In this document: in pieces, positions 5,701 through 46,937 of the stretch
Layout: each line of letters opens with the position of its first letter
How positions within the stretch are numbered: position 1 is the first letter of the stretch
Assembly: GCA_930980855.1 (NCBI GenBank)
Contig: CAKNIZ010000005.1
Span: 4,713 to 68,712 of the forward strand
Source of the DNA: an uncultured Clostridium sp.
Lineage (GTDB): Bacteria > Bacillota > Clostridia > TANB77 > CAG-508
Length of the DNA stretch: 64,000 nucleotides
Direction of reading: 5' to 3'
Made by a program: the position numbers and the translations under genes
The notes under the pieces: model-generated
Database searches by the model: none
Told to the model about the DNA's origin: nothing
What the model saw: only the letters and a program-made list of their open reading frames with translations

Positions 5701-7945
5701 TTACCGAAATTCTCCATGAGCCATCATCATCTATATCTGCATCTTTCTTATTATATTCGTATTCATGTGTTTTACCATTTACTCTGACAATTGCCTTGTA
5801 AACATCTTTTTGAAGTCCTAAATCTGCTGTATCTCTTAAATATAATCCGAAATCTACATTTCTACTTTGGTCTCTATCTTTAGTATATAGGTTATCATAT
5901 CCTAGTAGTGAACCATCTTGAGGATTGTCTATGTCTTCTAGTAAGAAAACATTTTCTTCTGGATAGTTTATTGTATATGCACTAATTAGACAATCTTGAA
6001 TATATTCCCAAATATTATCTTGTTCTTGACTATCAACTCCTATACTGCTAAGCTCACTCTTGAAATCTCCCTCTATGTTATTATATTCCATAGCTTGCGT
6101 ATATTTATCTATATACGTATTTTCCATAGAGTCCTTATTTGTCATGTCATAGTCATTTCCATATGTAGCTAATTCCTTAAATATATCCCATGCATCACAG
6201 AATCTAAATGCACCTTCATTTATGTCTGCATTTGTTCCAGATGAGCCACTATATGATATATAGTCACCTCGTGAGTTCTTTATTTTTTCGTAAAAACTAT
6301 ATACTTTCTTCCAGCCACCGTCTTGATAGTTATCTGGTGATGAATCTATGGTTTCAAATTTTAGATTTAAATCTTCCCTATCACTATCTCTTTCTCTAGC
6401 TGTTGAATATCCTCCACTTAAATCATTTTTATAATAAGTGTCTTGATATACCATTCCGTTATATATGAATCTTACATAGTATTTATGCATTGGGTTAATA
6501 TTTTTGAATCCATATGCTCCATATTGGTCTGTAGTTGTACTACTTACAAAAGTATCTGTATTTGCATCATATAATTCTACTTGAATTCCTGCAAATTTTG
6601 ATTCAGCTCCATTGTTGAATCTTCCGTCCATGTCACTTTCTTTTGTTAAGTCACTTAATTCTTGCCATACATATCCACCAATGTACATATCTACATCAAA
6701 TCCTTGACCAGGACTTTTTAATACAGACCAGTTTGGTGAACAGTTATATATTCTAATCATTGGTTGAATGTAATCAGTTATACCTGATGCATTTGAGTCA
6801 TTTGCGTTATAATGCCCACTTGATCCTAAAACCTCTTCCGTTACTTCGCTATCGCTAAGTCTACTATCTGATTGGCTATAATGTCTAATATCTCCTGGAT
6901 AAAATGGTATTGACCAAACTCCTCCACCTTTAGTAGATCTAATTATAAGTTCAGCTTCTATATTAGAGAATTCCCAGTAATCAAATACTGTTCTATATCC
7001 TTCAATAATTGCATTACCATCATCATCTTGCCCCCAAATTGGTTCTTCATGTGTTTCTTTGCTTCTTGAATAATTCACAACATTTAATTCAATATCATAA
7101 AAGTCTAGACTTATTGGTGTATATTCAGTAGCAGAGCCACTCATGCTAGCAATGTAATCTACGTCTATAGTAAAATCACCTGTGTAATCTATCTCTCCAT
7201 CATTATTAGGCTGAAATTGTATATAAAACTCTTCTCCACTTACAAAGTTTGGAAAATCAATTTGATTTCTTGAAGAATTTAAGAATATTGGATTTGTTCC
7301 ATCTAACCCAGATATAGCATTAAATTTAGCAAATCTAGTAGCATCTGAGTATCCTTGATTTCCTTTTCCTATAATTTCATTGTATAATATTTGTTTAGCT
7401 TCATCATCTCCTGCATTAACAGTTAAAGTATATGGTCCTACTGTGTATGTCTTATTATTCTGGTCTACCATCAATTTTAAATCAGTATGATTTATTGTAA
7501 ATAATGGGTTATTTCCAAGTTGTGAAAAAATTTTATAATATACAGTTCCATATTGGTAAGATCTAATTTCTACAGTATTGGAACTTGTAGATGTATAATG
7601 AGGTGGATTTCCTATTTCTACAACATTAGATGAATTTCCCCATTGTACTGATGCCCATACCACCTTTTGTATTGCGACTGGATCTGAACTTCCAATCCAA
7701 GCTGCGTATGCAGAAGATTGCTCAGGCGTTCCAACAGAGCGTTCTGAAAACTCCATATATGTTTCTTCTTTATCATTTGCAAAGAACAATAATGCTTTAC
7801 CTTGATTCATACAGAATAAATCTGGACTAATTTCATATGCTTGTGAATGATATGGAAAAGTTGCACCATTTACCACTCCTTGTAATACAAATATTGCTAT
7901 TATACTAATTAAAAATATTATTAATCGTTTTAAAGTTTTACTCAT
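2711..7945 (-). CDS. Giant sortase-anchored cell-surface protein (adhesin-like)
   Basis: 1744 aa. N-terminal signal peptide. SdrD/Cna-B-like segments (GYVWQE...QVELYD...TDQYGAYGFKN; TGYVFEDNR...VTVQLVE). C-terminal LPPTG, then a hydrophobic helix and an RKK tail. Confidence 0.75.
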   Translation of the reverse strand: MSKTLKRLIIFLISIIAIFVLQGVVNGATFPYHSQAYEISPDLFCMNQGKALLFFANDKEETYMEFSERSVGTPEQSSAYAAWIGSSDPVAIQKVVWASVQWGNSSNVVEIGNPPHYTSTSSNTVEIRSYQYGTVYYKIFSQLGNNPLFTINHTDLKLMVDQNNKTYTVGPYTLTVNAGDDEAKQILYNEIIGKGNQGYSDATRFAKFNAISGLDGTNPIFLNSSRNQIDFPNFVSGEEFYIQFQPNNDGEIDYTGDFTIDVDYIASMSGSATEYTPISLDFYDIELNVVNYSRSKETHEEPIWGQDDDGNAIIEGYRTVFDYWEFSNIEAELIIRSTKGGGVWSIPFYPGDIRHYSQSDSRLSDSEVTEEVLGSSGHYNANDSNASGITDYIQPMIRIYNCSPNWSVLKSPGQGFDVDMYIGGYVWQELSDLTKESDMDGRFNNGAESKFAGIQVELYDANTDTFVSSTTTDQYGAYGFKNINPMHKYYVRFIYNGMVYQDTYYKNDLSGGYSTARERDSDREDLNLKFETIDSSPDNYQDGGWKKVYSFYEKIKNSRGDYISYSGSSGTNADINEGAFRFCDAWDIFKELATYGNDYDMTNKDSMENTYIDKYTQAMEYNNIEGDFKSELSSIGVDSQEQDNIWEYIQDCLISAYTINYPEENVFLLEDIDNPQDGSLLGYDNLYTKDRDQSRNVDFGLYLRDTADLGLQKDVYKAIVRVNGKTHEYEYNKKDADIDDDGSWRISVRAADYLYNGDYRYTREIRKSEYLYDGSIYGANGGTDAKDLQVYVTYRIVVRNQSASYDTIVNEIVDYYDSNEYEFDENNPIISENTYVGDRAGDRIGDLDVSTSTTLSNGRGDTTLTNYYEPLYLSGITDENGNEALPTNGGMAFVYLTLKVKTHTDENGMDGRVQMDVNVSSGAEKGVGKRNIAEINGYSTYYKDGATIPDELDSGDSTIDEDVGGDVAGVIDLDSSVGSLSDDDIDSDGDLIIDDDPVSNRTEDDTDKAPNIKLVFPQSDADERTFTGYVFEDNRTEASGKAAIGNGRYDSGEAKINGVTVQLVELVQEVDASDAGSPTGNYLGEYVWYAKRYENGNWVDVDSSSTSGSRRYYSGQIGTVAPIITGPGATAVGGYDITEEGQYAFKAIPAGDFFIRFIYGDTTQTTLTTSAGEGSEVVGLLTSNGITTDVNGEQGFISTEGLNAKSYNGQDYKSTTYQAGVSQTGSYNGVDAYTRYDEQNYNITINENQSPVNGSSSKYQISKYIDREATNVDGTKKNVMYYYNIGESATQSGVSDAKDVGNIRDSSNNYSSGKTDIDGETHQTLVNARAEVLAAGLKVNSNNNANDQVSMIKELMDNTAMTSQTGVINTEIEYNRTETGDQGDNNGMSYVIDDIDLGLAERPVAQLNMDKEVTNMRITLADGTILFDTGHSVTNVSYAEHTGHIADYLGVPDENNGPAYRLLGVTMGANSESTPELITTYMDEELMYGARIELIYTFTVTNIGEVDYMDNQFYYTGVSNAPNDLNNVSTSRADTVVDYVSNNLQFLPTNSNNSTWSIRTVDDLVRNTNAGTNIGDNTNLINTKFTDTLRTYNALTTTKALGDTNLYPETFGSGTANVSTQMMLSSTLTPDSGDDSMVYNNLAEMVQVSNDQGRRMKFSIVGNQAMADQSLGVGDPANPDEGIYTKSDLVTPEEPDADSSQQVLILPPTGANRNYVMWIVIGLVIAVLIGGSIFLIRKKVLKNK

Positions 7946-7959
7946 ATTCTCCCTCCTTT

Positions 7960-10900
7960 CTATATTTTATTTAGGACTCTTTTTTTAATTATCCATACTG
8001 CTACTCCTATAATAGCAAGTACTCCTATAGTAATTCCGATGAAAGAAGCTACCTCTCTACCAGTTCCAAGTGTAATTAGTAAGTCTGCATAAGAAATATC
8101 ATCTTCGCCATCTTGCTTATTTCCCGCTGTAGAATCTTTATCTTCTAATCCATATTCATTATAAGATTTATTTATTTCTACTAAATTATGTACTGTTCCT
8201 GTATTTTCTCCGGTCATCTTTCTTGTTAATACTAAAGTTACTGTTTTGCTTTCTCCCGGATTTATAATTGTATTAGCTAAGCTTGTTGTATAAAGATTTC
8301 CATCACTAGCCATATACCAATTATTATTTAATTCAGAACTAAATGCCATTCCTTCTGGTAAATAATCAACTATTTCTTCTGCATATCCTGGAATTTCACC
8401 TTCATTTGTAACTGTTATATTGTATTCTACAAGTACTGTTGTATCTTCAATTTTTGTGTTATATAAATCAATTTTTCCAAAAGAACTATTAACTTCTTGT
8501 TCAATTGTTTCTATATAAGGATTTGTTGCTGTTACTTTTGAAATTGTTTTGTCAATGCTTAAGTCAAAGTTTCTTATTCTTGATAGTCCTAAGTCTAAAT
8601 TATAGAAATTGCTATTAGTAATTGTAAAGTTGTCTGTTGCAGCAACTTCTCTTCCATCTAGAGTTGCATTTACAAAATCTGAATTTTCAGATTCTGAAAT
8701 TCCTTCTGCATGATAAACTGTTACTCTATATATACTCGTATCAAATTCTGCTACAACATTATATTGTCCAGGTTTCACATTATTAAATGTGTATCTTCCA
8801 TCTTCTCCGGTTGTCATTACTAAATCATTTCCTGAAACATCTTTTGCTATTGCTCCAGTAGTAGAATCATATAACATAACTCTTATATTAGCGAATCTAG
8901 TTTCTTCTGAACTTCTTCTTCCATCATTATTTTCATCGATCCAAATGTTACCTGTAACTCTATATGTACCATCTATTGAAGGTTCATCTGCCCCGCCTTG
9001 TTCATAGTCGCCAGTTCCTTGAATTCTTACACTTGCAGAATTAATTGAAACTGCATCTCCATCTATTATTTGTAATGTTGGTTTATTTTCTACTGTAGTT
9101 TCTTGTCCTTGTGCAATAGTATTCGCTCTCGCTCTAATTGTAGCTCTAGCATTTTCTCCTGCTTTTAATGTAAAGTTAGTTTTTATAAATCCACCTGTTG
9201 AACTTGCAACTTCTTGTCCGTTAACAACTAATCTATAATTTGTAAGTCTTAATTCACTTGGAAGAGTATTTGCAAATGTTAATCTAACGTCAGTATCTCC
9301 TCTATTCTCAATATCTACGTAAAACTCAAGTTGGTCTGTGTCTATCATTGTTCCATCAGGAAGATTCGTTGACTGTTCTGCAAAAATGTCCACTCTTGAA
9401 GAATAATATGAAATGGAATTTGAAAATTCCTCTTGTCCACCATCAGAAGTTGCGCTTGCAACTACAATAGCATCGTTTGAAAGTTCTCCTGTAACTCTAC
9501 CATAGAATTGCATATATACAGTTTTTCTAGAGCTCATTTGTCCTATTGGATAACTTAATGTATTTGTTTCTTTATTATAATATTGTGTATAATCTGTTCC
9601 TGCATATTCCATTCCTTGTGGGAATTTTAAGTTAAGCACTACATTATTCTTTTCATCTCTATTAACATTTTCAAGTTCTACATCAAATGATATTAATTGG
9701 CCATTTAAAGCTTTTCCTTCTACATCTGCAACCAAACTTAATCTTACTGTTCCTTTTGTATTATGGAATGAATATTCTAATACTTGTTCAGGTGTTTGAT
9801 CTGATATCACTTTAAAAGTAGTTAATGTTTGATATGGATCTTCTTGAATATCTGGGTCTTCTTCATCTCCTGTATTATCATCAATTATTTCAATATTTCC
9901 TACATTAAATTCAAGTTCTTTCTCTTCTCCTGCTCCTAAACTTTCTATTGTTTGAACCTGTTCTGTAAGTTCATAGTTTAATCCATAGCTTCCTGGTCCT
10001 CCAGTAGAACCTTCCCTATAAACTAATGCTGCTAATTCGTCCGGCATTGTTTGAGTTACTTTTACATTTGTTGCTGGAACATCAGCATTATTTTTTACTT
10101 TTACTCTAAATTTGATATATTGCCCTTCTTTAATATCTGCTCCATTTGCTATTTGAGCTCCTGTATTAAAATCATAAGCTGTAATTTCTGCTGTAACATC
10201 TGGTTCTAATCCTGTTGTAATTCCAACTGGTGTTGCTGAAACAACATTTTGGGTTGTTCCTTCTTCTGCATCATTATCATAATATATTCCAAAATTTGAT
10301 TTTACTGTATTGTTATATTGTAAGTTTGCTGGAACGGTTACATTATAATTAAAATTGAATCTTGTTGCATTTGTCATAGCTCCATCTAATACTATTAAAT
10401 AAGATTTTGCATCTGCTGTATAATCTTTTGTCCATCCATTACTTGAATTTTGTAAATCAGCATCTGCATTTTCATTAGTAGAATAATATATAGTTCCTGT
10501 TATTCCGTCTAATGTAATTCCACTTGCAAATTTTGTATCAAAATTACTTCCTAAGTTTTCATTAGTTCCTACTTTTGTATTTCCTGAGAAAGGAATTCTT
10601 CCTAATACCTTAACTCCAGTTGCATCACTTCCTAAGTTATTAACTATTGTTCCTGTTACTTGCATTGTTTTTTCTGAAGAATTTGCTGCTATTCTTCCAA
10701 TTTCTTCATTTCCTTCTTGTGATGTAGCTTTTTCATCTCCATTATATCCAGTTAAAGAATTTATTGTAACAAATCCTGTAGGTGCTACAACGTTTACAGG
10801 GGCTTGTACAGAGTTTGTAACAGCCTCTCTTTGAACTGAATAATTATTTTGATTTGTATAGTCTAATGTAATATTTGTTTCCTTACTTGGTGCTAAATTA

Positions 10901-12792
10901 TCTAAAGTTAAATCAACTACTAAACGAATTACAGTTCCTTTTGATATAGCTTGTTCTTCATATTTTGTTTGTGTTCCAGTTAAAGATAAATAGATAGTAT
11001 TTCCTTCTACTCTAAATTCATTTTGTGTTAATTCTTCTTCATATAATAATTTTGCATCTTTTAATTCAATATTTGTTACCTCTTCAGGTAATCTAATCAT
11101 TATTTCTGGATTTTGATATAAAGCATCTGTTATATCATCTCTTTCTAGTGTTGCTGTGATAATAACATCTTCATTTTCTACTACTGTTGAAAGGTTATTG
11201 TTGCTAATTTCAATACTTGCTTTTGAAGTAGGTTCTTCTAATGTAATTGTTTTAGTAGATTCTTGATTTATTAATATTCTTGAAGTCATATTTGTAAAAC
11301 TTTGTATTTCTTCTTTTGAAAGATTTAGTTCACTAGAAATAGCTTTATCTGCATGAATTGTTATATCTCCTTCAGATACTGGTTTGCTAAATTCGAAAGT
11401 AATTTTTGAAGAATTTACATCTAATTCTAATTTGTCTTTATTTAGAGTTCCTATTAATGTTCCATCTTCTTTTGAAACATTAATGCTACCTGATTCTCCA
11501 AGTACTTTTATAATTTCTTCTTGTGAAACACTAATTTTTTTAGTGTATACAGAATTGCTTATATCTTGTTCATTAAATAATTCTCCTAAATCTTTTACAG
11601 TTACCTTATCTAATGCTTCAGCGAGTCCTATATTTATTTTGTAGTCTTCTGAAAATTCTGTTTCTTTCTTTCCGTCACTAGTATTTATATTATTATACAT
11701 ATATCCCTTATTTAAAGTTTCCACATTACTTGTAATTTCTGCTGTTACAATATCTCCAATTTTTCCATCTATTGTATAATCATTTTCTTGTGTTTCATTC
11801 GTAAAGCTCATACCATTTATTAATGTAGTATTCGTCGTCACTTTTGATGTTACTTTTGTAGCTTCTTCATTCATGTTTACATTATATAAATATGTAATAA
11901 CAAATCTATCTGCTAGTTCTTTATTCCAAGAAACTTTTCCTTCTTCATTTTCTGGATTGTTTACTTTAATTGTAATTGTTCCTGTATTTTCATCATAGGT
12001 CCAATTTTCATTTGAAAAAGCTGTACCGTCTAATACGCCATTTGTATTAGCTGTATCTATTGCATTTATAATTATTTTAGAAGGTTTATTTCCAGACAAC
12101 TCTGGAACAGTAACCAATAATTCCTTAGAATTAATTGGCATTTTTGCATCTTTTAATTTATCGCTTAGAATAACACTTAACATCGTTTGATTATTATATG
12201 TTAAATAACGAATAACACTTTGAGATGTTTCACTAGATAAAGAATTTTCATCTATTGTCCAAGATAAGTTTTGTACTAATTCTTTTTCTACTTTTCTTTC
12301 TTTATTATCCTTGTTAACATATGTTGCTTCTAATATAACCTTACTTTCTCTACCTAAAGTATCTTTAGATATTTGTTCTTGCTTATCTAAAGTAATTGGG
12401 ATTGCTAAGTCAACAGTCTGTCCTGCACTAATCATGTTTAGTTCTACTCTATCTTGAGTAATATTTTTTATTCTTTCATCTTCTATGCCGTCAGTTTTTA
12501 AAATATAATTATTATTTTCTAGTCTAATAACTATATCTTTTAAATATCCTGTATTCTCAACGCTTGTAGAAAGATAAAGCTTATTTGTATCTGAGTCCAT
12601 ATTTGCTGTATATGAATGTTGATTGTGAGAACTATCATCTCCTATTGTTGCATTAAATTTTACATTTGCTTGATTTGTGTCGCTATTTTGTTCTAAAAGA
12701 TCTGCTGCATAAACTCCAGTGGTAATAAACTGAGCTCCCAATAGCACCGTAACAAGCAAAATAGCAAAGATTTTGTTAGTTATTCTTTTCAT
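7960..12792 (-). CDS. Giant cell-surface repeat protein (DUF11-like and SdrD-B-like domains, C-terminal membrane or sorting anchor)
   Basis: 1610 aa. Signal peptide (ILLVTVLLGAQFITTGVYA). An SdrD-B-like block (VTGNIWIDENNDGRR...GRYTFNNVKPGQYNV). The C-terminus has TLGTG, then a hydrophobic helix and a KKR tail, which is a non-canonical LPXTG-like signal. Confidence 0.7.
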   Translation of the reverse strand: MKRITNKIFAILLVTVLLGAQFITTGVYAADLLEQNSDTNQANVKFNATIGDDSSHNQHSYTANMDSDTNKLYLSTSVENTGYLKDIVIRLENNNYILKTDGIEDERIKNITQDRVELNMISAGQTVDLAIPITLDKQEQISKDTLGRESKVILEATYVNKDNKERKVEKELVQNLSWTIDENSLSSETSQSVIRYLTYNNQTMLSVILSDKLKDAKMPINSKELLVTVPELSGNKPSKIIINAIDTANTNGVLDGTAFSNENWTYDENTGTITIKVNNPENEEGKVSWNKELADRFVITYLYNVNMNEEATKVTSKVTTNTTLINGMSFTNETQENDYTIDGKIGDIVTAEITSNVETLNKGYMYNNINTSDGKKETEFSEDYKINIGLAEALDKVTVKDLGELFNEQDISNSVYTKKISVSQEEIIKVLGESGSINVSKEDGTLIGTLNKDKLELDVNSSKITFEFSKPVSEGDITIHADKAISSELNLSKEEIQSFTNMTSRILINQESTKTITLEEPTSKASIEISNNNLSTVVENEDVIITATLERDDITDALYQNPEIMIRLPEEVTNIELKDAKLLYEEELTQNEFRVEGNTIYLSLTGTQTKYEEQAISKGTVIRLVVDLTLDNLAPSKETNITLDYTNQNNYSVQREAVTNSVQAPVNVVAPTGFVTINSLTGYNGDEKATSQEGNEEIGRIAANSSEKTMQVTGTIVNNLGSDATGVKVLGRIPFSGNTKVGTNENLGSNFDTKFASGITLDGITGTIYYSTNENADADLQNSSNGWTKDYTADAKSYLIVLDGAMTNATRFNFNYNVTVPANLQYNNTVKSNFGIYYDNDAEEGTTQNVVSATPVGITTGLEPDVTAEITAYDFNTGAQIANGADIKEGQYIKFRVKVKNNADVPATNVKVTQTMPDELAALVYREGSTGGPGSYGLNYELTEQVQTIESLGAGEEKELEFNVGNIEIIDDNTGDEEDPDIQEDPYQTLTTFKVISDQTPEQVLEYSFHNTKGTVRLSLVADVEGKALNGQLISFDVELENVNRDEKNNVVLNLKFPQGMEYAGTDYTQYYNKETNTLSYPIGQMSSRKTVYMQFYGRVTGELSNDAIVVASATSDGGQEEFSNSISYYSSRVDIFAEQSTNLPDGTMIDTDQLEFYVDIENRGDTDVRLTFANTLPSELRLTNYRLVVNGQEVASSTGGFIKTNFTLKAGENARATIRARANTIAQGQETTVENKPTLQIIDGDAVSINSASVRIQGTGDYEQGGADEPSIDGTYRVTGNIWIDENNDGRRSSEETRFANIRVMLYDSTTGAIAKDVSGNDLVMTTGEDGRYTFNNVKPGQYNVVAEFDTSIYRVTVYHAEGISESENSDFVNATLDGREVAATDNFTITNSNFYNLDLGLSRIRNFDLSIDKTISKVTATNPYIETIEQEVNSSFGKIDLYNTKIEDTTVLVEYNITVTNEGEIPGYAEEIVDYLPEGMAFSSELNNNWYMASDGNLYTTSLANTIINPGESKTVTLVLTRKMTGENTGTVHNLVEINKSYNEYGLEDKDSTAGNKQDGEDDISYADLLITLGTGREVASFIGITIGVLAIIGVAVWIIKKRVLNKI

Positions 12793-25449: not shown

Positions 25450-25552
25450 AAATAAACTCTCCTTTTCTTCGACCTAATCATTATACTACAAATTTATGCA
25501 TCTTTCAAGCATTTCATTTGCTACTAAATATGTGACTAAAAAATTGTATTTT

Positions 25553-25786
25553 TTATATACTCTCAATTTCTTTTATTATTATCTTATTATTAATAAAGCT
25601 TCCGTTAGCAATCACTAATTTATTATTATTTACATACATTTTATCTGCAATTTCGTCAATTGCAATTATTGGAATAATTTGTTTCTCATCTTCTATGTAA
25701 CCTTTTGCTAAACTTGTATGTTTTCCTTTATATATAAATAAATATTCTACATTAACTAATTTGCCCATTATATATATTTCATTCAT
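25553..25786 (-). CDS. 77-aa hypothetical protein immediately 3' of the DGR template repeat (weak OB-fold/SSB-like pattern)
   Basis: An RBS (aggtgg) precedes the ATG. The pattern MNEIYIMGKLVN..., then beta-strand-like alternation, then VIANGSF is loosely reminiscent of an SSB OB fold. No firm family. Confidence 0.35.
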   Translation of the reverse strand: MNEIYIMGKLVNVEYLFIYKGKHTSLAKGYIEDEKQIIPIIAIDEIADKMYVNNNKLVIANGSFINNKIIIKEIESI

Positions 25787-25957
25787 TTTCCACCTATTAT
25801 CTTTTATTTAAGACTCATTAATTACAAGTTTTCAGCTTTCTTACTCATCCGTAATTAATTAATATATTTACCTTAATTAGGAAGGAACAAGTCTCTTTAA
25901 TATCTAATATATTACTGTATGAATTCGCTTAAAATACATAATCCGAATTAATATTAG

Positions 25958-26093
25958 AGTGGGCCTGCATGCAATGTTGTTGTTGCTGTTTCTCGTATTG
26001 TTGTTATTGCGATTACTCGTGTAATTGTTGCTATTATTGTAGTTGCCTCCCCTGTTAACACAAGGATTGTTAGTGTTAGAGTTAGTCTCGGTT
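25958..26093 (-). repeat. DGR template repeat (TR)
   Basis: 136 bp aligning without gaps to 28412-28547. All 22 mismatches are T on the plus strand here, i.e. A on the coding strand. Read in the VR frame it carries 19 AAY codons. Confidence 0.9.
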
Positions 26094-26122
26094 ATAACTT
26101 GTCCCTAATCTTAATTTACTAG

Positions 26123-27142
26123 TTATTCATTATAAAATAAATTGTTAATTAATCCTCTTACATTTGCTATTTGTATATATCCTATATGTCCACACAAATA
26201 TTTTTTTGCATCTTTATATGTTATTTTTTCATTTCTTATATTATATTTTAATACTTTTATTTTATTTTTCAATTTGCGCTTACCTTTGTCTCTAATTTTC
26301 AAATTATATTCTTTTATTTTATATCCACAAAAGTTAACTCCTTGCTTTCCTTTGAAAATTTGTGTTTTGTTATTTAGTTCTAATTGTAAATTCTCTTTTA
26401 GGAATTTTTTTATATTTTTTACTGCTTTTATTGCTTCTTCTTTAGTTGGTACTAATAAAATTTCATCGTCCATGTACCTATAATACCACTTATACTTCAA
26501 CTTTTCTTTGACATACCAGTCTAGCTCATTTAAATATATATTAGCAAACATTTGTGACGTATAATTGCCTATTGGTAAACTTTTTGCTCCTGTTTCCAAA
26601 TAATTCGAATAAATTATTTCTTTTATTAGCCACAACACTTTTTTATCTAATACTCTTCTTTTTAGTATATTTAATAATATATCTTTATCTATGCTTTGAA
26701 AAAACTTTGCTATATCCATTTTTAGTATATAATAATTCTTGTATTTATTTTTCATATGTCTCATTGCTTTTTGTACATCTAAGCATGCTTTATGCATCCC
26801 TCTTTTTTCTATACAAGCATAGCTTGTTTCTATAAATCTTGGTATATAATATGGTTTTAAAATATTGTCTACAAGCCATCTATGTACAATTCTGTCTATA
26901 TATTTTGATTTCTCTATTTTTCGTTTTTTGGGTTCATATACATAAAATGAGGTATATCCTCCATGTTTATATGTTCCAGCTTTTAAATTTTCATATATGT
27001 ATTTTATATATTCTTCTTGCTTTAAATTAAATAATATTGTTTCTTTTCTTGAAGCTTTACCTTTTCTGCTTTCTATATGTGCTTTCATTAATTTTTCATA
27101 GCTCAAATTTCTATTCCACACATTTCTAATAGTTTTTGGCAT
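26123..27142 (-). CDS. DGR-type reverse transcriptase
   Basis: 339 aa. RT motifs KMDIAKFFQSID, the DGR-diagnostic LPIGNYTSQMFANIYL ([ILV]GxxxSQ), and YMDD. Confidence 0.9.
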   Translation of the reverse strand: MPKTIRNVWNRNLSYEKLMKAHIESRKGKASRKETILFNLKQEEYIKYIYENLKAGTYKHGGYTSFYVYEPKKRKIEKSKYIDRIVHRWLVDNILKPYYIPRFIETSYACIEKRGMHKACLDVQKAMRHMKNKYKNYYILKMDIAKFFQSIDKDILLNILKRRVLDKKVLWLIKEIIYSNYLETGAKSLPIGNYTSQMFANIYLNELDWYVKEKLKYKWYYRYMDDEILLVPTKEEAIKAVKNIKKFLKENLQLELNNKTQIFKGKQGVNFCGYKIKEYNLKIRDKGKRKLKNKIKVLKYNIRNEKITYKDAKKYLCGHIGYIQIANVRGLINNLFYNE

Positions 27143-27551
27143 AGTATTTTATTAATCCTCCAAGTATTTGCCCTATTTCATATATTTGGCTCATTGCCAC
27201 ATCTAACTTATGTTCATCTATCCATTTATTTTTATACATTATTCTTAAATAAATTCTTTGACAATTAAGCATACTATCTATTCTATTTAAAATTTTTATC
27301 TTTTCATAACACTCTTCCTCTATTATTTTTTTCATAAAATCGTTTTTATCATTTTGAGACTTTACATTACTATTCTTTATTTTTATAGTTTTATTTAAAT
27401 ACATTACGTTCTCTAACATGTTATATAAACTACTTTTATATTCATTGCCAATACTAAATTTTTCCGTTCGTGGTAATTTTATTATTAGCTCTATAATATA
27501 TTGAATATATTTCTCTGATTTTGGTATTAATTTTAATTTTTCTTTTTCCAT
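27126..27551 (-). CDS. avd: Avd-like accessory variability determinant (four-helix-bundle family)
   Basis: 141 aa and helical. LPRTEKFSIGNEYKSSLYNMLENVMY matches the FPKxERFxLGxQ pattern of the Avd / 23S-IVS protein family. It overlaps the RT start by 17 nt. Confidence 0.7.
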   Translation of the reverse strand: MEKEKLKLIPKSEKYIQYIIELIIKLPRTEKFSIGNEYKSSLYNMLENVMYLNKTIKIKNSNVKSQNDKNDFMKKIIEEECYEKIKILNRIDSMLNCQRIYLRIMYKNKWIDEHKLDVAMSQIYEIGQILGGLIKYYAKNY

Positions 27552-27588
27552 GGCTTTTCCCTTTTATATTTTTATTCACTATATTTAG

Positions 27589-27990
27589 TTAGGTTTCACT
27601 AACTTCACTATTTAAATATTTCCTTATCTCTTCTCTTTCATATTGATATATTGCATTTTTACAATTCTCACATCCTAAGTTATGAATGCTTTTCATATTT
27701 TTATTTGCATCATCGAAATTTTCTTCTACCTTTAGTTCTCCATTAATATTTTTATACACAATGTAGCTTATCTCCTTTTCCTTTAATGCTACTAAATATT
27801 TATTTAGACTTCTTACAGGAACTCCCACTTTACATAAGTATTTAATAAAGCATGTACATTTTAAATTAAATAGTTCATGTAATAGTACCGCATCTTTTCC
27901 TATCGCTATATAGAAATTACCATTTTGAACAAACAATACCTTATCTCCAACTTTTTCTTTTAGTAACCTTACTTTTTCATTAAACTTCAT
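27589..27990 (-). CDS. MutS domain-I-like accessory protein (MSL-type DGR accessory ORF)
   Basis: 133 aa. VLFVQNGNFYIAIGKDAVLLHELF...CKVGVPVRSLNKYLVALKEKEISYIVY parallels MutS_I (LLFFRMGDFYELFxxDA...CGVP...YLxxLxxxGxxVAI). The Glu of the F-x-E motif is replaced. Confidence 0.55.
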   Translation of the reverse strand: MKFNEKVRLLKEKVGDKVLFVQNGNFYIAIGKDAVLLHELFNLKCTCFIKYLCKVGVPVRSLNKYLVALKEKEISYIVYKNINGELKVEENFDDANKNMKSIHNLGCENCKNAIYQYEREEIRKYLNSEVSET

Positions 27991-28055
27991 TTCTTTCTCC
28001 TTTATTTATTTTATTTTTTAGCATTTTATTACCCACTTAAAATATTTTTAAGGTG

Positions 28056-28103
28056 GCAAAGGGCTATGCATATTAAGTTCATTTAATACACATAGCCCTT
28101 TGC
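28056..28103 (-). promoter_or_regulatory. Leader hairpin upstream of msl-avd-RT (homologous to the target-gene leader hairpins)
   Basis: gcaaagggctatg(ca)tattaa ... ttaata(ca)catagccctttgc. The ca/ca mismatches become U.G and G.U wobbles only in minus-strand RNA. Confidence 0.5.
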
Positions 28104-28138
28104 TATTTTTATTTATAGATATTTTGTTAAATCTTACG

Positions 28139-28195
28139 ATATATATATATATATATATACAGCCTCAAGGCTTTCAGCGTTTTTCATATTCTTCT
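28139..28195 (-). promoter_or_regulatory. Conserved promoter module copy 1: (TA)10 tract plus TTGAGG -35-like box
   Basis: Minus strand reads cgctgaaagccTTGAGGctgt(at)10cgtaagattt. The 17-nt spacing from TTGAGG places a TATATA -10 inside the TA tract. Confidence 0.45.
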
Positions 28196-28265
28196 CTCTT
28201 TCATTTTATCTTATAAATTTTACGACTTTTGTAAATCTGTACGATTATCTTACAATCTACAATAA

Positions 28266-28399
28266 AGCTCCCGTAATTCCTCCCGCGGAGAGACTTCACA
28301 CTAAGCGAACTTAGCTTGAAGCCTCTCATGAAAGCTCTGGTCTTCTACCATTACTAAGTTCGAGTCCCCTTAAAGTGCATCGCAGTCAAGCGCTCAGCG
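28266..28399. other. GC-rich (~50%) structured island between the VR/stop codon and the msl promoter region
   Basis: Contains a 40-nt hairpin at 28288-28327 (gagagacttca-ca-ctaag-cgaa-cttag-ct-tgaagcctctc). Composition contrasts sharply with the AT-rich flanks. No ORF. Confidence 0.5.
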
Positions 28400-29698
28400 T
28401 TACAAATATAAAGTGGGCCTGCATGCAATGACGTTGTCGCTGTAACTCGTACTGTCGTCAGTGCGACCACTCGTGTAACTGTAGCTACTACGGTAGTTGC
28501 CTCCCCTGTTAACACAAGGAACGCCAGTGTAAGAGTAAGTCTCGGTTGTCCATTCATACGTATTTCCAGACATATCATATATATTACATCTCACATCTTT
28601 TGCTTCATCCCCACTGTCAACATTTGCTAATATACTTTCTCCTGCTTTCTGTAAAGACCTTTCTGTATTTTTTCCAATCTGTCTTGAATAATTTTTATCT
28701 CCACTACATTCTTGGATAAATACTATTGCTGTATCCCATGCATAACTATTTATTAAATCACTTGTAAAATTTGTACCACTATACATATTTTGGCATAAAC
28801 TTGCTGCTTGTAGTTGTGTTATATAATTATATGGATATACTCCTGTTTTACACACTATTGGATTCGTATCACTTGTACTAGAACCTCTTGCAGAACTTGT
28901 GGCTAGAGCATCTCCTGCTTCGTAGCGTCCTATATAATAGCCTCCATTTGCATTCGCACTATTTTTAAATGCATTTATGTCTTTCGCTATTGTATTTCCA
29001 TATCCACTTGATGCATGTTCACTCGCTGTTTCTTCTTTAAATGAACTTGAGACTTGGATGACATTTCCTGAGGTATTAAAATCATATCTTCCTAATGTTA
29101 TTGTTTTTTCTCCTTGCGAGGTTTTTATTTTTCCTACTGGTATCCATACAAATTGACTTCCTTTTGTATTAGCATCACCTGCTGATACATCTTCTATTAT
29201 TATTCCTTTTTCTACATTATCTTGTGGATTTACTACTTTGAATCCTGCAGGTATAACTACTTTATTTCCTAGACTGTCTTGAGTTTCTGTATTTTGTGTT
29301 TCGCTTCCAGTTATATCTCCTAATCCTGGGCCTGTTTTCATTGTTCCTGTTATTTTTACTCCATTTACATACGCTGTTTTCCCTTCTAATATATCTTCTG
29401 GTGTAGCTGTAGCATCTGATGTATCTAAACTTTCAAGCGTACCAGTTATTCCTCCAATTGTTACTCCTTTTCTAATGTAACTTGCCATTAGACTTGAATT
29501 TGCATTTCCTCCTGCTAAGTAATTTTCTCCTTCTGTTTCTTGGTTTACTACAACATTTCTTATTACTATACTTCCAATTATTATTCCTATTAAGGCTATT
29601 ACTGCAATTAGTATTATTAGCCTTTTCTTCTTATTGTTTTGTACTTTTCCTTCTTTTTTCATTTTTTCCTCCCTCGTATTTTTTATTTTTTCACACAA
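28400..29698 (-). CDS. DGR target protein: membrane-anchored, with a C-terminal FGE-sulfatase/C-type-lectin-fold variable domain
   Basis: 432 aa. N-terminal KK-rich tail and TM (LIILIAVIALIGIIIGSIVI). GITGT.../DIL.GKTAYVNG.KITGT repeat. C-terminus GNTYEWTTE...CVNRGGNY...ACRP is typical of the CLec fold that holds DGR VRs. Confidence 0.85.
   Translation of the reverse strand: MCEKIKNTREEKMKKEGKVQNNKKKRLIILIAVIALIGIIIGSIVIRNVVVNQETEGENYLAGGNANSSLMASYIRKGVTIGGITGTLESLDTSDATATPEDILEGKTAYVNGVKITGTMKTGPGLGDITGSETQNTETQDSLGNKVVIPAGFKVVNPQDNVEKGIIIEDVSAGDANTKGSQFVWIPVGKIKTSQGEKTITLGRYDFNTSGNVIQVSSSFKEETASEHASSGYGNTIAKDINAFKNSANANGGYYIGRYEAGDALATSSARGSSTSDTNPIVCKTGVYPYNYITQLQAASLCQNMYSGTNFTSDLINSYAWDTAIVFIQECSGDKNYSRQIGKNTERSLQKAGESILANVDSGDEAKDVRCNIYDMSGNTYEWTTETYSYTGVPCVNRGGNYRSSYSYTSGRTDDSTSYSDNVIACRPTLYL
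28412..28547 (-). repeat. DGR variable repeat (VR), last 45 codons of the target gene
   Basis: Matches the TR at 114 of 136 positions. 16 TR AAY codons and one AGA codon are altered. The 3' 19 nt (cattgcatgcaggcccact in coding sense) are invariant and are a candidate IMH. Confidence 0.9.
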
Positions 29699-29749
29699 AA
29701 AAGCTACATATTTTAAACGAATTTTAGGTTCGCCTAAAATACATAGCTT
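29695..29749 (-). promoter_or_regulatory. Terminator-like leader hairpin in the 5' UTR of the DGR target gene
   Basis: Minus RNA: aagcuauguauuuuaggcgaaccuaaaauucguuuaaaauauguagcuu followed by uuuuuug. The mismatches are wobbles only on the minus strand. It lies ~35 nt upstream of the ATG. Confidence 0.55.
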
Positions 29750-29789
29750 CTTCTCTATGTATATTTATGTTTATTTTATTAAATCCTAC

Positions 29790-29840
29790 AATATATATAT
29801 ATATATATACAGCCTCAAGGCTTTCAGCGATTTTCATGTA
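29790..29840 (-). promoter_or_regulatory. Conserved promoter module copy 2: (TA)9 tract plus TTGAGG box
   Basis: Minus strand reads cgctgaaagccTTGAGGctgt(at)9tgtaggattt. It is near-identical to copies at 28139 and 62537. Confidence 0.5.
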
Positions 29841-29967
29841 TAATTTTCACCTTTCTTTTACTAACTTATATTATCTTTATACATTTATTTCTTGCATTTG
29901 TCAATCGCTATATAAATTATTTCTAAAAAATATTTAAATTAGTATATTTTTTTATTTAATACATATA

Positions 29968-29996
29968 TTTACTTAAATAATTTTACATGATATAAT
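29968..29996 (+). promoter_or_regulatory. Sigma-A-type promoter for the CDF transporter gene
   Basis: TTTACT (29968-29973), then a 17-nt spacer ending in TG, then TATAAT (29991-29996): an extended -10. Confidence 0.5.
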
Positions 29997-30039
29997 AGAA
30001 ATTATGCGATATAAATTTAAAATAAGAAAAGGAATAATT

Positions 30040-30927
30040 ATGGATAGATACGGAAAAACAAAATTAGCAGGAATTCTAGGAATTGTAGGTAATATATTTT
30101 TACTAATAATTAAAGCAATTATTGGTTTTATTTCTAATAGCCAGGCAATGATAGCGGATGCTGCAAATAGCGCAGCTGATATTTTTGCTTCACTTATGAC
30201 TTTTATCGGGAGCAAAATTGCTAGTGAGCCTAAAGATGATACTCACAATATGGGACATGGAAAAGCTGAATATATTTTTTCTATGTTTATTAGTATTTCC
30301 ATGATATTTATTGCTTTTACTCTTCTTTATGATTCTGTAATGTCTTTAGTTAATAAGAGTACCTTTGAATTTTCATGGTTTTTAGTAGTAGTTTGTATTA
30401 TAACTATAGTTGTAAAACTTAGCTTGTTTATATATACTTCTAAATTAGCTAAAGGAATGGATAATTTATTATTAGAAGCAAATAAGAAAGATCATAGAAA
30501 TGACTGTATTATCACTACTTTTACTTTAATTTCAGTACTATTAAGTTTAATAAATATATATTGGTTTGACGGTGTAGTTGGTATTGGAATTTCTATTTGG
30601 ATTTTCTTTACTGGTTTTAAGATTTTTGTAGAGAGTTTCAATGTTTTAATGGATAAATCATTAAATGAAAAAGATAAAGAACAAATTATTAAAGTATTAG
30701 AAAAATATCCTGAAATAAAGAAATATAATCATTTAAATACATCACCTGTTGGATATAAATATTTAATATCAATTACAATATTTGTAGATGGCAGTCTTTC
30801 AACTTTTGAAAGCCATGAAATAGCTGATAAGCTAGAAGATGAATTGGATAAATTGGATTTTGTATATTTAGCAATAATTCATGTTAATCCTTTAAATATT
30901 GAAGAAAAAAATACTGACCAAAATTAA
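30040..30927 (+). CDS. Cation diffusion facilitator (CDF) family metal efflux transporter
   Basis: Six TM helices. Motifs ADAANSAADIFAS and HRNDCI, plus a C-terminal cytoplasmic domain. The start at 30040 has an aaaagga RBS and is downstream of the predicted promoter. The track start at 30004 would overlap the -10 region. Confidence 0.8.
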   Translation: MDRYGKTKLAGILGIVGNIFLLIIKAIIGFISNSQAMIADAANSAADIFASLMTFIGSKIASEPKDDTHNMGHGKAEYIFSMFISISMIFIAFTLLYDSVMSLVNKSTFEFSWFLVVVCIITIVVKLSLFIYTSKLAKGMDNLLLEANKKDHRNDCIITTFTLISVLLSLINIYWFDGVVGIGISIWIFFTGFKIFVESFNVLMDKSLNEKDKEQIIKVLEKYPEIKKYNHLNTSPVGYKYLISITIFVDGSLSTFESHEIADKLEDELDKLDFVYLAIIHVNPLNIEEKNTDQN

Positions 30928-44891: not shown

Positions 44892-46937
44892 TTATTGGTC
44901 ATTATTATTATTTATTGGTCCAAAAAGTTCATCGAATTTTGCTTCTAGTTCTTTTTGAATATCTATCTCATCCTCAGATGTATTTTGCATTTGTTTAGCT
45001 ACATCATCCTCAAATCCCGGAAGCACTGCCGAATCTGCTGAACTAGGAGGATTCATATTTGTTTGCACAGGTGGAATATTTTGTATAGGCTGATTATTTT
45101 GAATAGGTACATTTTCTTCCACTTTTGTATCTTCAAATAAATCGTCCAATGAATCAATTCGCACATCTTCCTGTTTTTTCTCTTCTGTTTTATTTCCTGT
45201 ATATGGGTCATAAGGATTGTATTTTCTCCAATTTCCTCTTTCACCACAATCAAAATCATTATGGTCAATTCTTTTACTATTAAAATCTTTTATCATATTT
45301 GTTTGATAATACCAGAATTTTTTAGCTTTAATTGGCTTTAGACCTTTTTCAAATATGATACATTCGTTATTATCCATTCTTCTAAGCTCATCAGGTGTCA
45401 TTAATGCTCTAGCCATTATTTGGTCTGATTCACTAAATCCTGTACTTACATCTAATGTATTTCTATTAATTGACTTACTATTATGTTTTATTGTTTTTTC
45501 GCCTAATTCTTTTGAGAAATACTCAACTGTAGCATAAGAGTTACTTCCTAAGAATACGTGAGTATCACAGTTACCAATAATAGTTTCATAAGATTTTTCA
45601 TAAATTGCTTTTAATTGGTCTAAGTTTTGAAGAATAACACTAAATGAAATTCCTCTACTTCTACTGGTTGATATTTTTTTATCAAAATCTGGTATTTGAC
45701 CTATATTAGCAAACTCGTCCAATATGAAAAATGTTTTTATAGGTAATTTACCACCATTTTTATCTGCAAAATCATATAATTGTTGTATCATCTGTGAAAA
45801 GAAAATTGTAAGTAGGAAATCATAAGCTGTATGAGTATCTGAAGATACAACGTATAAAGCTGTTTTCTTAGATGCGATATCAGCAAAATCTATAGTATTT
45901 GTTGATGTAACATCCGCTATATCTTTTGAATCAAACTTACCAAGTTTTGATTGCAATGTACTAAGTATAGAACTATATGTTTTGTCTGAAGCTATTTCAA
46001 CAGATTTGTAGTTCATTCTTGCTGGATGGTCATATGGCAATCTACTCATTAAATCTGAAAGTAAGTTACTTCCACCATTATTATTTGCTGCTCTAACAAG
46101 TTCCGCACAGCTAGCCAAGTTTTGCTCTTCTGGAGGAGCTGCAGCTATCAAATAATATATTAATGCTTTTAGCAAAATTTCTGCCATGTTATCCCAATAT
46201 GGGTCTGAAGCACTTCCTTCTGCTTTTTGTCCTTTTACAATAGTATTAGCAATAACGTCTACATCTATCTCGCTTTGAATATGTTGAAGAGGGTTATAAC
46301 TATCACTACTTGTAGGATTAACTAAATTTAATAATTTGATTTCGTATCCATGATCTTTTAAATATCCCGCTGTAGTATCATAAATTTCTCCTTTGGGGTC
46401 TGTAAAAATGTATGAACCTAACAATTGGTGAGCATTTGGTATAGTGTAGCTTGATGATTTACCAGAACCTGAACCACCGACAATAAGAACATTTATATTT
46501 CCTATTTTATTTAATGGTAAATAATTATTTTGTGCTAATAGTAGTCCAGAATTTCTGCTTAATACTCTATATTGCTCTCCGCCTGTACACCAGTCACTTG
46601 AACCATGCTCTATATCTTGGTATTTGGTTTTCTTTCTATTCTTGTAAGCTCCTATTCCAAAAGCAATTCCTAAGAAAATTGTAAATCCTAATGTCCATGA
46701 CCCAAAAGTTCCTATTACATTTGAATCAAATACTTTTGTAATACCCGCCAAAGATACTACATTTGATATAAAATCCTGTATAAAAAGAGCTATATCAAAT
46801 CTACCATCAACATAGCTCTCACTTATAGTATATGCAATCGGTGCTATTAGGAGAAGTTCCGCAATAATCCACACCACTAATGCAAATATTATATATTTTA
46901 AATTTCTTTTTATGAATTCACTAAATTTATTTTCCAT
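44892..46937 (-). CDS. VirD4/TraG-family type IV coupling protein-like ATPase
   Basis: 681 aa. N-terminal TM helices, Walker A VGGSGSGKSSSYTIPN, Walker B FFILDEFANIG, a TraG/TraD-type C-terminal region, and an acidic/Pro-rich tail. Confidence 0.75.
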   Translation of the reverse strand: MENKFSEFIKRNLKYIIFALVVWIIAELLLIAPIAYTISESYVDGRFDIALFIQDFISNVVSLAGITKVFDSNVIGTFGSWTLGFTIFLGIAFGIGAYKNRKKTKYQDIEHGSSDWCTGGEQYRVLSRNSGLLLAQNNYLPLNKIGNINVLIVGGSGSGKSSSYTIPNAHQLLGSYIFTDPKGEIYDTTAGYLKDHGYEIKLLNLVNPTSSDSYNPLQHIQSEIDVDVIANTIVKGQKAEGSASDPYWDNMAEILLKALIYYLIAAAPPEEQNLASCAELVRAANNNGGSNLLSDLMSRLPYDHPARMNYKSVEIASDKTYSSILSTLQSKLGKFDSKDIADVTSTNTIDFADIASKKTALYVVSSDTHTAYDFLLTIFFSQMIQQLYDFADKNGGKLPIKTFFILDEFANIGQIPDFDKKISTSRSRGISFSVILQNLDQLKAIYEKSYETIIGNCDTHVFLGSNSYATVEYFSKELGEKTIKHNSKSINRNTLDVSTGFSESDQIMARALMTPDELRRMDNNECIIFEKGLKPIKAKKFWYYQTNMIKDFNSKRIDHNDFDCGERGNWRKYNPYDPYTGNKTEEKKQEDVRIDSLDDLFEDTKVEENVPIQNNQPIQNIPPVQTNMNPPSSADSAVLPGFEDDVAKQMQNTSEDEIDIQKELEAKFDELFGPINNNNDQ

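Follow-up and report, generated by a model that had tools for sequence, protein, structure and literature searches.

The question raised by this locus is whether two long, imperfect repeats on either side of a reverse transcriptase (RT) gene are the template and the target of a diversity-generating retroelement (DGR) and, if so, whether that element still diversifies its target. The repeats lie in a stretch of 64,000 nucleotides (nt) from an uncultured Clostridium sp. (assembly GCA_930980855.1, contig CAKNIZ010000005.1, positions 4,713 to 68,712), referred to in full as the window; coordinates are window positions and all parts of the cassette lie on the minus strand. Tens of thousands of DGRs have been catalogued. 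We consider it very likely that the locus is a chromosomal DGR of an uncultured gut Clostridia bacterium, active now or very recently. As a DGR it adds one more ordinary member to a known type, and its architecture, which includes an MSL gene, has already been described.

A repeat finder returned a single long direct repeat of 139 nt (25955-26093 and 28409-28547) with 83% identity. The template repeat (TR; 25958-26093; 136 nt with 58 adenines) lies downstream of the RT gene and starts 29 nt past its stop codon, and the variable repeat (VR; 28412-28547) forms the last 45 codons of the target gene. Realignment over the 136 nt gave no gaps and 22 mismatches, each of them a plus-strand T in the TR and hence an A on the coding strand, with 0 of the 78 non-adenine positions differing between the two. 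Written for the plus strand, 13 of the changes from TR to VR were T>C, 7 were T>A and 2 were T>G. With 58 adenines among 136 TR positions, the hypergeometric probability of finding every one of the 22 differences on an adenine was 4.4e-10. Read in the VR frame, the TR contains 19 AAY codons; the VR has changes in 16 of these and in one AGA codon (to AGT). The realignment thus confirmed to the base the ungapped 136-bp alignment of the original prediction, its placing of all 22 mismatches on TR adenines, and, exactly, its codon counts. No second VR was found on either strand of the 64-kb window when non-adenine TR positions were scored, the next best segment matching at 38 of 78.

The invariant, G+C-rich 3′ end of the VR (CATTGCATGCAGGCCCACT; 28412-28430) is the same as in the TR and had been proposed as a candidate initiation-of-mutagenic-homing (IMH) sequence for being unchanged despite its adenines. 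This held when six TR/VR pairs were pooled, with 0 of 24 adenine sites changed in the 3′ 19 nt compared to 127 of 324 elsewhere (Fisher P = 2.4e-5). By analogy with BPP-1 the segment is consistent with an IMH-like anchor, though TR and VR are identical there. In a related locus (L003, 6100-6270) the VR carries a 6-nt (two-codon) insertion relative to its own TR, inside an AAC-rich run.

Relatives of the RT were present in at least 320 GTDB species genomes. All 80 loci retrieved came from uncultured metagenome-assembled genomes (MAGs), labelled Clostridia or Clostridium in nearly every case, with isolate names indicating gut samples from human, chicken and rabbit; 53 of the 80 displayed a TR just past the RT and an adenine-biased VR approximately 2 kb upstream. 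This recurrence bears on the alternative of a duplicated segment or gene-conversion tract with an adenine bias arising by chance in A+T-rich DNA. The genome does have a very high A+T content, and adenines make up 43% of the TR on the coding strand; however, the hypergeometric test above and the sum over the six pairs (127 of 348 adenine sites differing compared to 2 of 468 other sites) effectively refute it. In addition, the adenine-rich copy is the non-coding one, and a DGR-type RT, an Avd and a DGR-associated RNA lie between or beside the repeats. We give plain duplication a negligible probability.

The VR was hypervariable at TR-adenine positions among otherwise identical strains. A metagenome scaffold in ENA matched the window without any difference. 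One contig from another sample (L002) was identical to the window over 10.6 kb, with the same TR, save for 25 substitutions in the VR (all between 28431 and 28525) and the insertion or deletion of one TA unit in a microsatellite. The exact 420-aa target protein was recorded in 46 contigs, and its 90%-identity cluster comprised 26 members; differences among the 15 that were aligned were largely concentrated in the C-terminal 45 residues. A second lineage (L004, L006, L007 and L008) displayed a TR that was identical among its members and differed from that of the window at 12 positions. At these 12 positions each VR had the base of its own TR, apart from two exceptions in the first lineage: position 102, an adenine site, in both VRs, and position 78, a non-adenine site (T>G), in L002. 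A monomorphic VR, which the original prediction had named among its grounds for refutation and equated with an inactive element, was therefore looked for among otherwise identical contigs and a polymorphic one was found, with the polymorphism at TR-adenine positions.

These comparisons also weigh on the possibility that the element is a relic, which diversified its target in the past and is now inactive, the VR differences being old alleles sorted among lineages. Such a relic would fit the recurrence of the window VR allele, unaltered, in 46 contigs, as well as the decaying copies seen among relatives (a split RT in L008 and L094; Avd and RT missing in L090). In the window, however, every cassette open reading frame (ORF) is intact, the catalytic motifs are present, and TR and VR agree at all 78 non-adenine positions. 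The 10.6 kb without a substitution outside the VR, compared to 25 within it, imply a turnover of the VR far above background mutation, and hence a recent one. Near-clonal contigs that differ in the VR at TR-adenine sites are strong indirect evidence for a DGR that is active or very recently active, and we regard a relic as quite improbable.

The RT (339 aa; 26123-27142; Pfam RVT_1) is encoded by a gene overlapping avd by 17 nt and contains the motifs IGNYTSQ (residues 191-197) and YMDD, confirming that part of the original prediction. In DGR RTs the signature [I/V/L]GxxxSQ replaces QGxxxSP, and residues R74 and I181 of the Bordetella phage RT (bRT) promote adenine mutagenesis (PMC7826257). Residues R74, I76, I191, G192 and Q197 were invariant in the window RT and 16 relatives, R74 and I191 being the counterparts of R74 and I181 in bRT. 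The best PDB match was 8ub7_A (E = 3.8e-35; approximately 30% identity over the aligned region), followed at some distance by a group II intron RT (9.8e-20). Because I181, G182 and Q187 of 8ub7_A fit the published numbering of bRT, we take this entry, from its residue numbering, to be bRT, making bRT the best solved relative. Scores against the NCBIfam models for group II and retron RTs were far below the cut-offs; NCBIfam holds no DGR RT model, and the assignment of the RT is based on the motif and the best PDB relative. The adjacent protein (141 aa; 27126-27551), described from the outset as Avd-like and located between TR and VR, passed the threshold of Pfam bAvd (49.2 bits; cut-off 40) and did not reach that of NCBIfam DivGenRetAVD (66.8 bits; cut-off 80).

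The target, or variable-protein, gene (28400-29662) encodes 420 aa from an ATG at 29662 in the ORF list. The length of 432 aa given earlier corresponds to the maximal ORF from a TTG at 29698 and not to the recorded protein; the position of the VR as the last 45 codons stands. The protein consists of a basic N-terminus, one hydrophobic helix (residues 5-38 in the full-length model), a beta-rich middle region of approximately 170 aa without a family match, and a short (approximately 185 aa) C-terminal domain, probably of the FGE type, that bears the VR. By the positive-inside rule, a basic N-terminus followed by a hydrophobic helix would place the variable domain outside the cell. Pfam FGE-sulfatase matched around YDMSGNTYEW...RGG with 19.6-19.7 bits, under its cut-off of 23.3, and 15 of 37 target homologues matched this family at E ≤ 0.01. 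The AlphaFold model of the full-length protein was poor (pLDDT 56), with Foldseek E values of at least 0.4. A model of residues 225-420, built on a deeper alignment of 105 sequences, reached a pLDDT of 70.6, and nearly all of its top 50 Foldseek matches contained an FGE-type C-type-lectin domain (FGE, EgtB, TvpA, PorK, Mtd), with probabilities up to 0.97, E values of at least 5e-3 and TM scores of 0.41-0.47. On this model the C-terminal domain is probably an FGE-type C-type-lectin fold. The N-terminal helix and the FGE-type matches, modest as their scores are, agree with the description of a VR placed in a C-type-lectin/FGE fold on a membrane-anchored protein. No tail-fibre domain was found in the target. 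Searched against the PDB as single sequences, target, Avd and MSL gave nothing useful, and profiles were used instead for target and MSL.

In order of transcription the cassette comprises the target gene with the VR at its 3′ end, MSL, avd, RT, TR, an RT-14 RNA and a small ORF that we call mini-SSB. The original prediction described as complete a cassette that overlooked three of these parts and was inaccurate in this respect: the MutS_I-like gene (27589-27990), the RT-14 RNA (25817-25959) and the conserved 77-aa ORF (25553-25786). Its account of the surroundings, a position between prfA and a CDF transporter gene in a sporulating Firmicute with no phage genes nearby, was borne out. The neighbours of the cassette are chromosomal (SbcCD-like genes, the CDF transporter, prfA, ZIP, PcrA and MecA), and further off the window encodes SpoIIE, YpeB, MreB, PBP2, FabF, AccC, MurF and DnaX.

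This context has to be set against the possibility that the DGR belongs to a phage or another mobile element and serves tropism switching, with the target as a prophage receptor-binding protein. A phage carries the prototype DGR, and the family occupies differing chromosomal sites by species, beside prfA, ileS or gyrA. Single MAGs can hold two copies on separate contigs (L017/L024, L018/L023 and L027/L031), an IS110 transposase abuts the cassette of L003, and in the window a VirD4-like gene is located at a distance of 15 kb. However, no capsid, tail, terminase or integrase gene was found within 6 kb on either side of the cassette, where the genes are of the housekeeping kind, and the other contexts examined were likewise housekeeping. 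Moreover, a membrane helix lies at the N-terminus of the target, in which no tail-fibre domain was found. A phage-borne or otherwise mobile DGR of this kind is in our view very improbable.

The RNA downstream of the TR was identified as RT-14 (Rfam RF02921; 25817-25959), a structured 3′ extension of the TR transcript. The match was full length (model positions 1-144) and scored 94 bits, compared to a gathering score of 48.1. RT-14 begins at the last nucleotides of the TR in the window, and in 18 of 19 related loci it starts no more than 5 nt from the end of the TR. Its predicted outer stem pairs CUAAUAU (25957-25951) with AUAUUAG (25910-25904) and starts, at 25957, at the first position of TR/VR divergence; six of its pairs are invariant and the seventh covaries (U-A/C-G). 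Inside this stem is a 9-bp stem with a UAAG(C) loop (25940-25918). A linker (GACUUGUUCCU; 25893-25883) is followed on its 3′ side by a small hairpin, the A-rich GGUAAA and a terminal stem. At permissive E values, an Rfam scan of 25500-30100 yielded nothing credible other than RT-14; a match to sau-5971 in this range was rejected as a generic hairpin (30.7 bits; gathering score 90).

The linker, unpaired in the Rfam consensus, forms the 3′ arm of a second helix whose 5′ arm (AGGGACAAGUU; 26096-26106) is outside the Rfam model and ends 2 nt before the TR/VR homology starts. This 11-bp duplex was predicted in all 52 loci examined. On alignment A3, made with MAFFT and not fitted to structure, 99.6% of the cells were paired, and in 7 of the 11 pairs both partners had changed; in controls with the partner shifted by 1 to 3 columns, pairing dropped to 46-67%. 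With the outer stem at the TR end and the 11-bp helix upstream, the copied segment is bracketed by two RNA helices. Handa et al. described the RNA elements of a DGR as an Avd-binding stem-loop, a priming duplex and a "Stop" duplex in which sequences upstream and downstream of the TR pair. The bracketing helices, the 9-bp hairpin, and the small hairpin with its adenosines match these elements by analogy, and it is from this likeness that we infer priming and termination roles for the helices. In Weinberg et al. (2017), only RT-10 was tied to a DGR (the TR-brt spacer of BPP-1), and the other RT motifs were a matter of speculation; the link of RT-14 to DGRs is a new, modest lead.

Between the target gene and avd lies MSL (27589-27990), a 133-aa stand-alone MutS domain I protein. 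It matched Pfam MutS_I with E = 1.4e-8 (35.3 bits; cut-off 20.6), and 29 of 30 family orthologues matched this family as well. In MutS, the mismatched base is stacked on by the Phe of GDFYE and contacted by the Glu two positions further on. The profile of MSL aligned to residues 22-95 of Taq MutS, and the 30 orthologues share an invariant G-x-F motif, the Phe of which falls on the GDFYE Phe. This Phe (F26) is kept, with I, V, T or L in place of the Glu two residues on. Judged from these residues, MSL may bind mismatches or heteroduplexes without the remaining repair machinery. Four conserved Cys (C47, C53, C107 and C110) suggest a putative metal site. Wu et al. (2018) defined the MSL class as proteins of 112-283 aa that are homologous to MutS domain I and always accompanied by avd ("Architecture D"), and MSL has been reported in DGRs of gut Bacteroides as well. 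By its content of MSL and avd, the cassette is of this known architecture.

The 77-aa ORF (25553-25786), preceded by a GGTGG ribosome-binding site and located after RT-14, is a candidate fifth cassette gene. A homologue of approximately 80 aa occupied the same place in 47 of the 54 family loci with enough downstream sequence. Synteny was considered as the cause of this conservation and rejected: the genes flanking the window cassette (prfA, CDF and ZIP) were missing from the other loci carrying the ORF. Four more database homologues were found in target-MSL-Avd-RT-ORF cassettes beside ileS or gyrA, one of which has lost Avd and RT. A target-MSL-Avd-RT-mini-SSB set beside ileS or gyrA was the arrangement in each of the 8 further contexts examined. 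The gene is thus tied to the DGR rather than to its chromosomal context.

As to its function, 21 of 39 members matched the Pfam single-stranded DNA-binding protein (SSB) family (PF00436; best E = 5.2e-7) and 9 matched the tRNA_anti-codon OB fold, with no Pfam match at E ≤ 0.01 for the 77-aa copy of the window. In a profile search of the PDB, SSBs were among the top matches at weak E values (0.08-1.7). The protein is shorter than the OB domain of SSB and is without a C-terminal tail, making it a candidate truncated OB-fold, SSB-like protein. When compared to the named accessory classes of Wu et al. (avd, HRDC, MSL and CH1; PAG1-4 were not part of the comparison), the ORF falls outside them. No literature linking an SSB-like protein to DGRs was found, in a search of incomplete coverage. 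Recent work has indicated that ExoI and replication direction influence BPP-1 retrohoming in E. coli, which makes a dedicated single-stranded DNA (ssDNA)-binding accessory plausible. Mini-SSB is a candidate for an undescribed DGR accessory gene and a modest new lead.

Taken together, these parts suggest a mechanism in which the transcript of approximately 26106-25817 would fold so that the 11-bp helix, as counterpart of the Stop duplex, and the outer stem of RT-14 flank the TR. An Avd pentamer would be bound by the 9-bp tetraloop-type hairpin, and the RT-Avd complex would prime complementary DNA (cDNA) in cis from a nucleotide on the 3′ side of the outer stem (approximately 25904). Copying would start at the last TR nucleotide (25958), with misincorporation opposite adenines, and stop at the upstream helix. 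The single-stranded cDNA would then replace the VR, with the invariant GC-rich 3′ segment as homing anchor. Mini-SSB would act on the single-stranded cDNA and MSL, which has kept the mismatch-stacking Phe, on the cDNA:VR heteroduplex. The outcome would be that approximately 17-19 residues encoded by AAY codons are re-randomized on the face with which a C-type-lectin-like domain binds its ligand; the N-terminal anchor of the protein would display this domain outside the membrane. In its most specific form this proposal is of a five-gene system throughout this widespread gut-Clostridia DGR family, in place of the described target-MSL-avd-RT set, in which an SSB-like accessory of approximately 80 aa, tail-less, coats or delivers the ssDNA form of the cDNA, possibly shielding it from exonucleases recruited by the host SSB, and in which RT-14 and the bracketing helix form the priming and termination module; we see the chances for and against this form as evenly balanced.

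Several points weigh against the overall interpretation as an active DGR of this kind. Two mismatches between a VR and its TR, one in L002 and one in L008, fall on non-adenine positions. The VR alleles come from metagenome assemblies, in which chimeric VRs are possible at a polymorphic region, but not adenine-specific ones. Diversification would be episodic and not continuous, since the window VR allele is unchanged in 46 contigs. Neither in the window nor in the family loci was the VR found to be followed by a hairpin or cruciform resembling the BPP-1 one. All steps past transcription are drawn by analogy, and the fold of the target is assigned on a medium-confidence model (pLDDT 70.6), modest Foldseek scores and sub-threshold Pfam matches.

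Compared to the BPP-1 DGR (mtd-avd-TR-brt), the window element displays the same adenine-specific differences between TR and VR, an RT with [I/V/L]GxxxSQ and the equivalents of R74 and I181, an Avd, and a VR that has an invariant GC-rich 3′ segment and lies at the 3′ end of the gene for a protein with a probable C-type-lectin fold. Both have an RNA of approximately 140 nt past the TR, in which a stem at the end of the TR is accompanied by a 9-bp tetraloop hairpin and by a helix that pairs the two flanks of the TR. In contrast to the phage-borne BPP-1 element, that of the window is cellular and chromosomal, its order is avd-RT-TR instead of avd-TR-RT, its RNA is RT-14 instead of RT-10, and it adds MSL and mini-SSB, with no post-VR hairpin found. 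It shares with the MSL DGRs of Legionella and Bacteroides (Architecture D of Wu et al., 2018) the combination of avd and a small MutS-domain-I protein with no HRDC gene, and differs from them in its host, an uncultured low-G+C gut Clostridia bacterium, in an MSL with four conserved Cys and without the Glu of Phe-X-Glu, and in the SSB-like ORF after the TR. The target resembles TvpA of Treponema denticola in the YDMxGNxxEW...RGG motif of its C-terminal domain and in a VR at the extreme C-terminus, and its model matches 2y3c (probability 0.93; TM 0.47); unlike TvpA, it has an N-terminal transmembrane anchor and not a lipoprotein signal, and its unassigned middle region and the shortness of its FGE-like domain also set it apart. 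As in Rfam RT-14, the full-length match lies beside an RT gene, whereas here it starts at the last TR nucleotide and its linker is paired upstream of the TR.

Near-clonal metagenome contigs that differ only in the VR are strong population evidence of DGR activity in the gut. The RNA-guided start and stop mechanism of the Bordetella phage element appears to hold in a distant family whose genes are ordered differently, and the orphan RT-14 motif would thereby be given a function. The foremost unsolved question in DGRs is the integration of cDNA, and ssDNA, ExoI and replication have recently been implicated. A dedicated ssDNA-binding accessory together with a MutS-domain-I protein would, if true, make this step testable in a compact system.

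Further elements were observed in the non-coding parts of the cassette. A leader of approximately 130 nt with promoter-like and terminator-like sites occurs in just two copies in the window. Copy A (29702-29837), upstream of the target gene, contains CGCTGAAAGCCTTGAGGCTG, (TA)8, a promoter-like hexamer pair, a 20-bp hairpin and a T run; copy B (28056-28187), upstream of the MSL-avd-RT operon, contains the same motif, (TA)9 and a hairpin, in which the second lineage displays a compensatory change from G-C to A-U. The (TA)n sites (29791-29809 and 28141-28159) vary among near-identical strains: n was 7, 8 or 14 at copy A, and at copy B it was 9 or 10 (9 in the window compared to 10 in L002). This variation could affect expression.

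A conserved motif (CGCTGAGCGCT ... GCGATGCAC; 28375-28399) stands right after the target stop codon. Most family loci have CTGAR-NN-CT in this place, followed in a subset by GCGATGCAC. Neither a hairpin nor an Rfam match was found for 28375-28399, and the motif may be a target-site recognition element. The region 28188-28400 is a GC-richer non-coding stretch with a long UUCG-capped hairpin (approximately 28262-28301) and is 83% identical in the second lineage. It had no Rfam match, and the fold of 28180-28415 was not significant (z = -1.6). A tRNA-like remnant, considered for a GTTCGAGTCC-like string in this stretch, was rejected on the result of ARAGORN, which found no tRNA or tmRNA.

Among the relatives, the RT is broken into two ORFs in L008 (3057-4076) and L094 (3162-4158), and L090 (3517-4779) has kept the target, MSL and the mini-SSB ORF and has lost Avd and RT. 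A sub-clade (L075, L078, L079, L081 and L083) has Avd and RT only, without MSL and the mini-SSB ORF, and shorter TRs of 112 nt. In L003 (9300-10583), the IS110 transposase is inserted directly after the 77-aa ORF. The VirD4-like gene of the window (44892-46937, minus strand), approximately 15 kb from the DGR, encodes a conjugal coupling protein of the CD1115 family and may mark an integrated conjugative element. Finally, two giant ORFs (2711-7945 and 7960-12792, minus strand; 1744 and 1610 aa) lie side by side and adjoin spoIIE.

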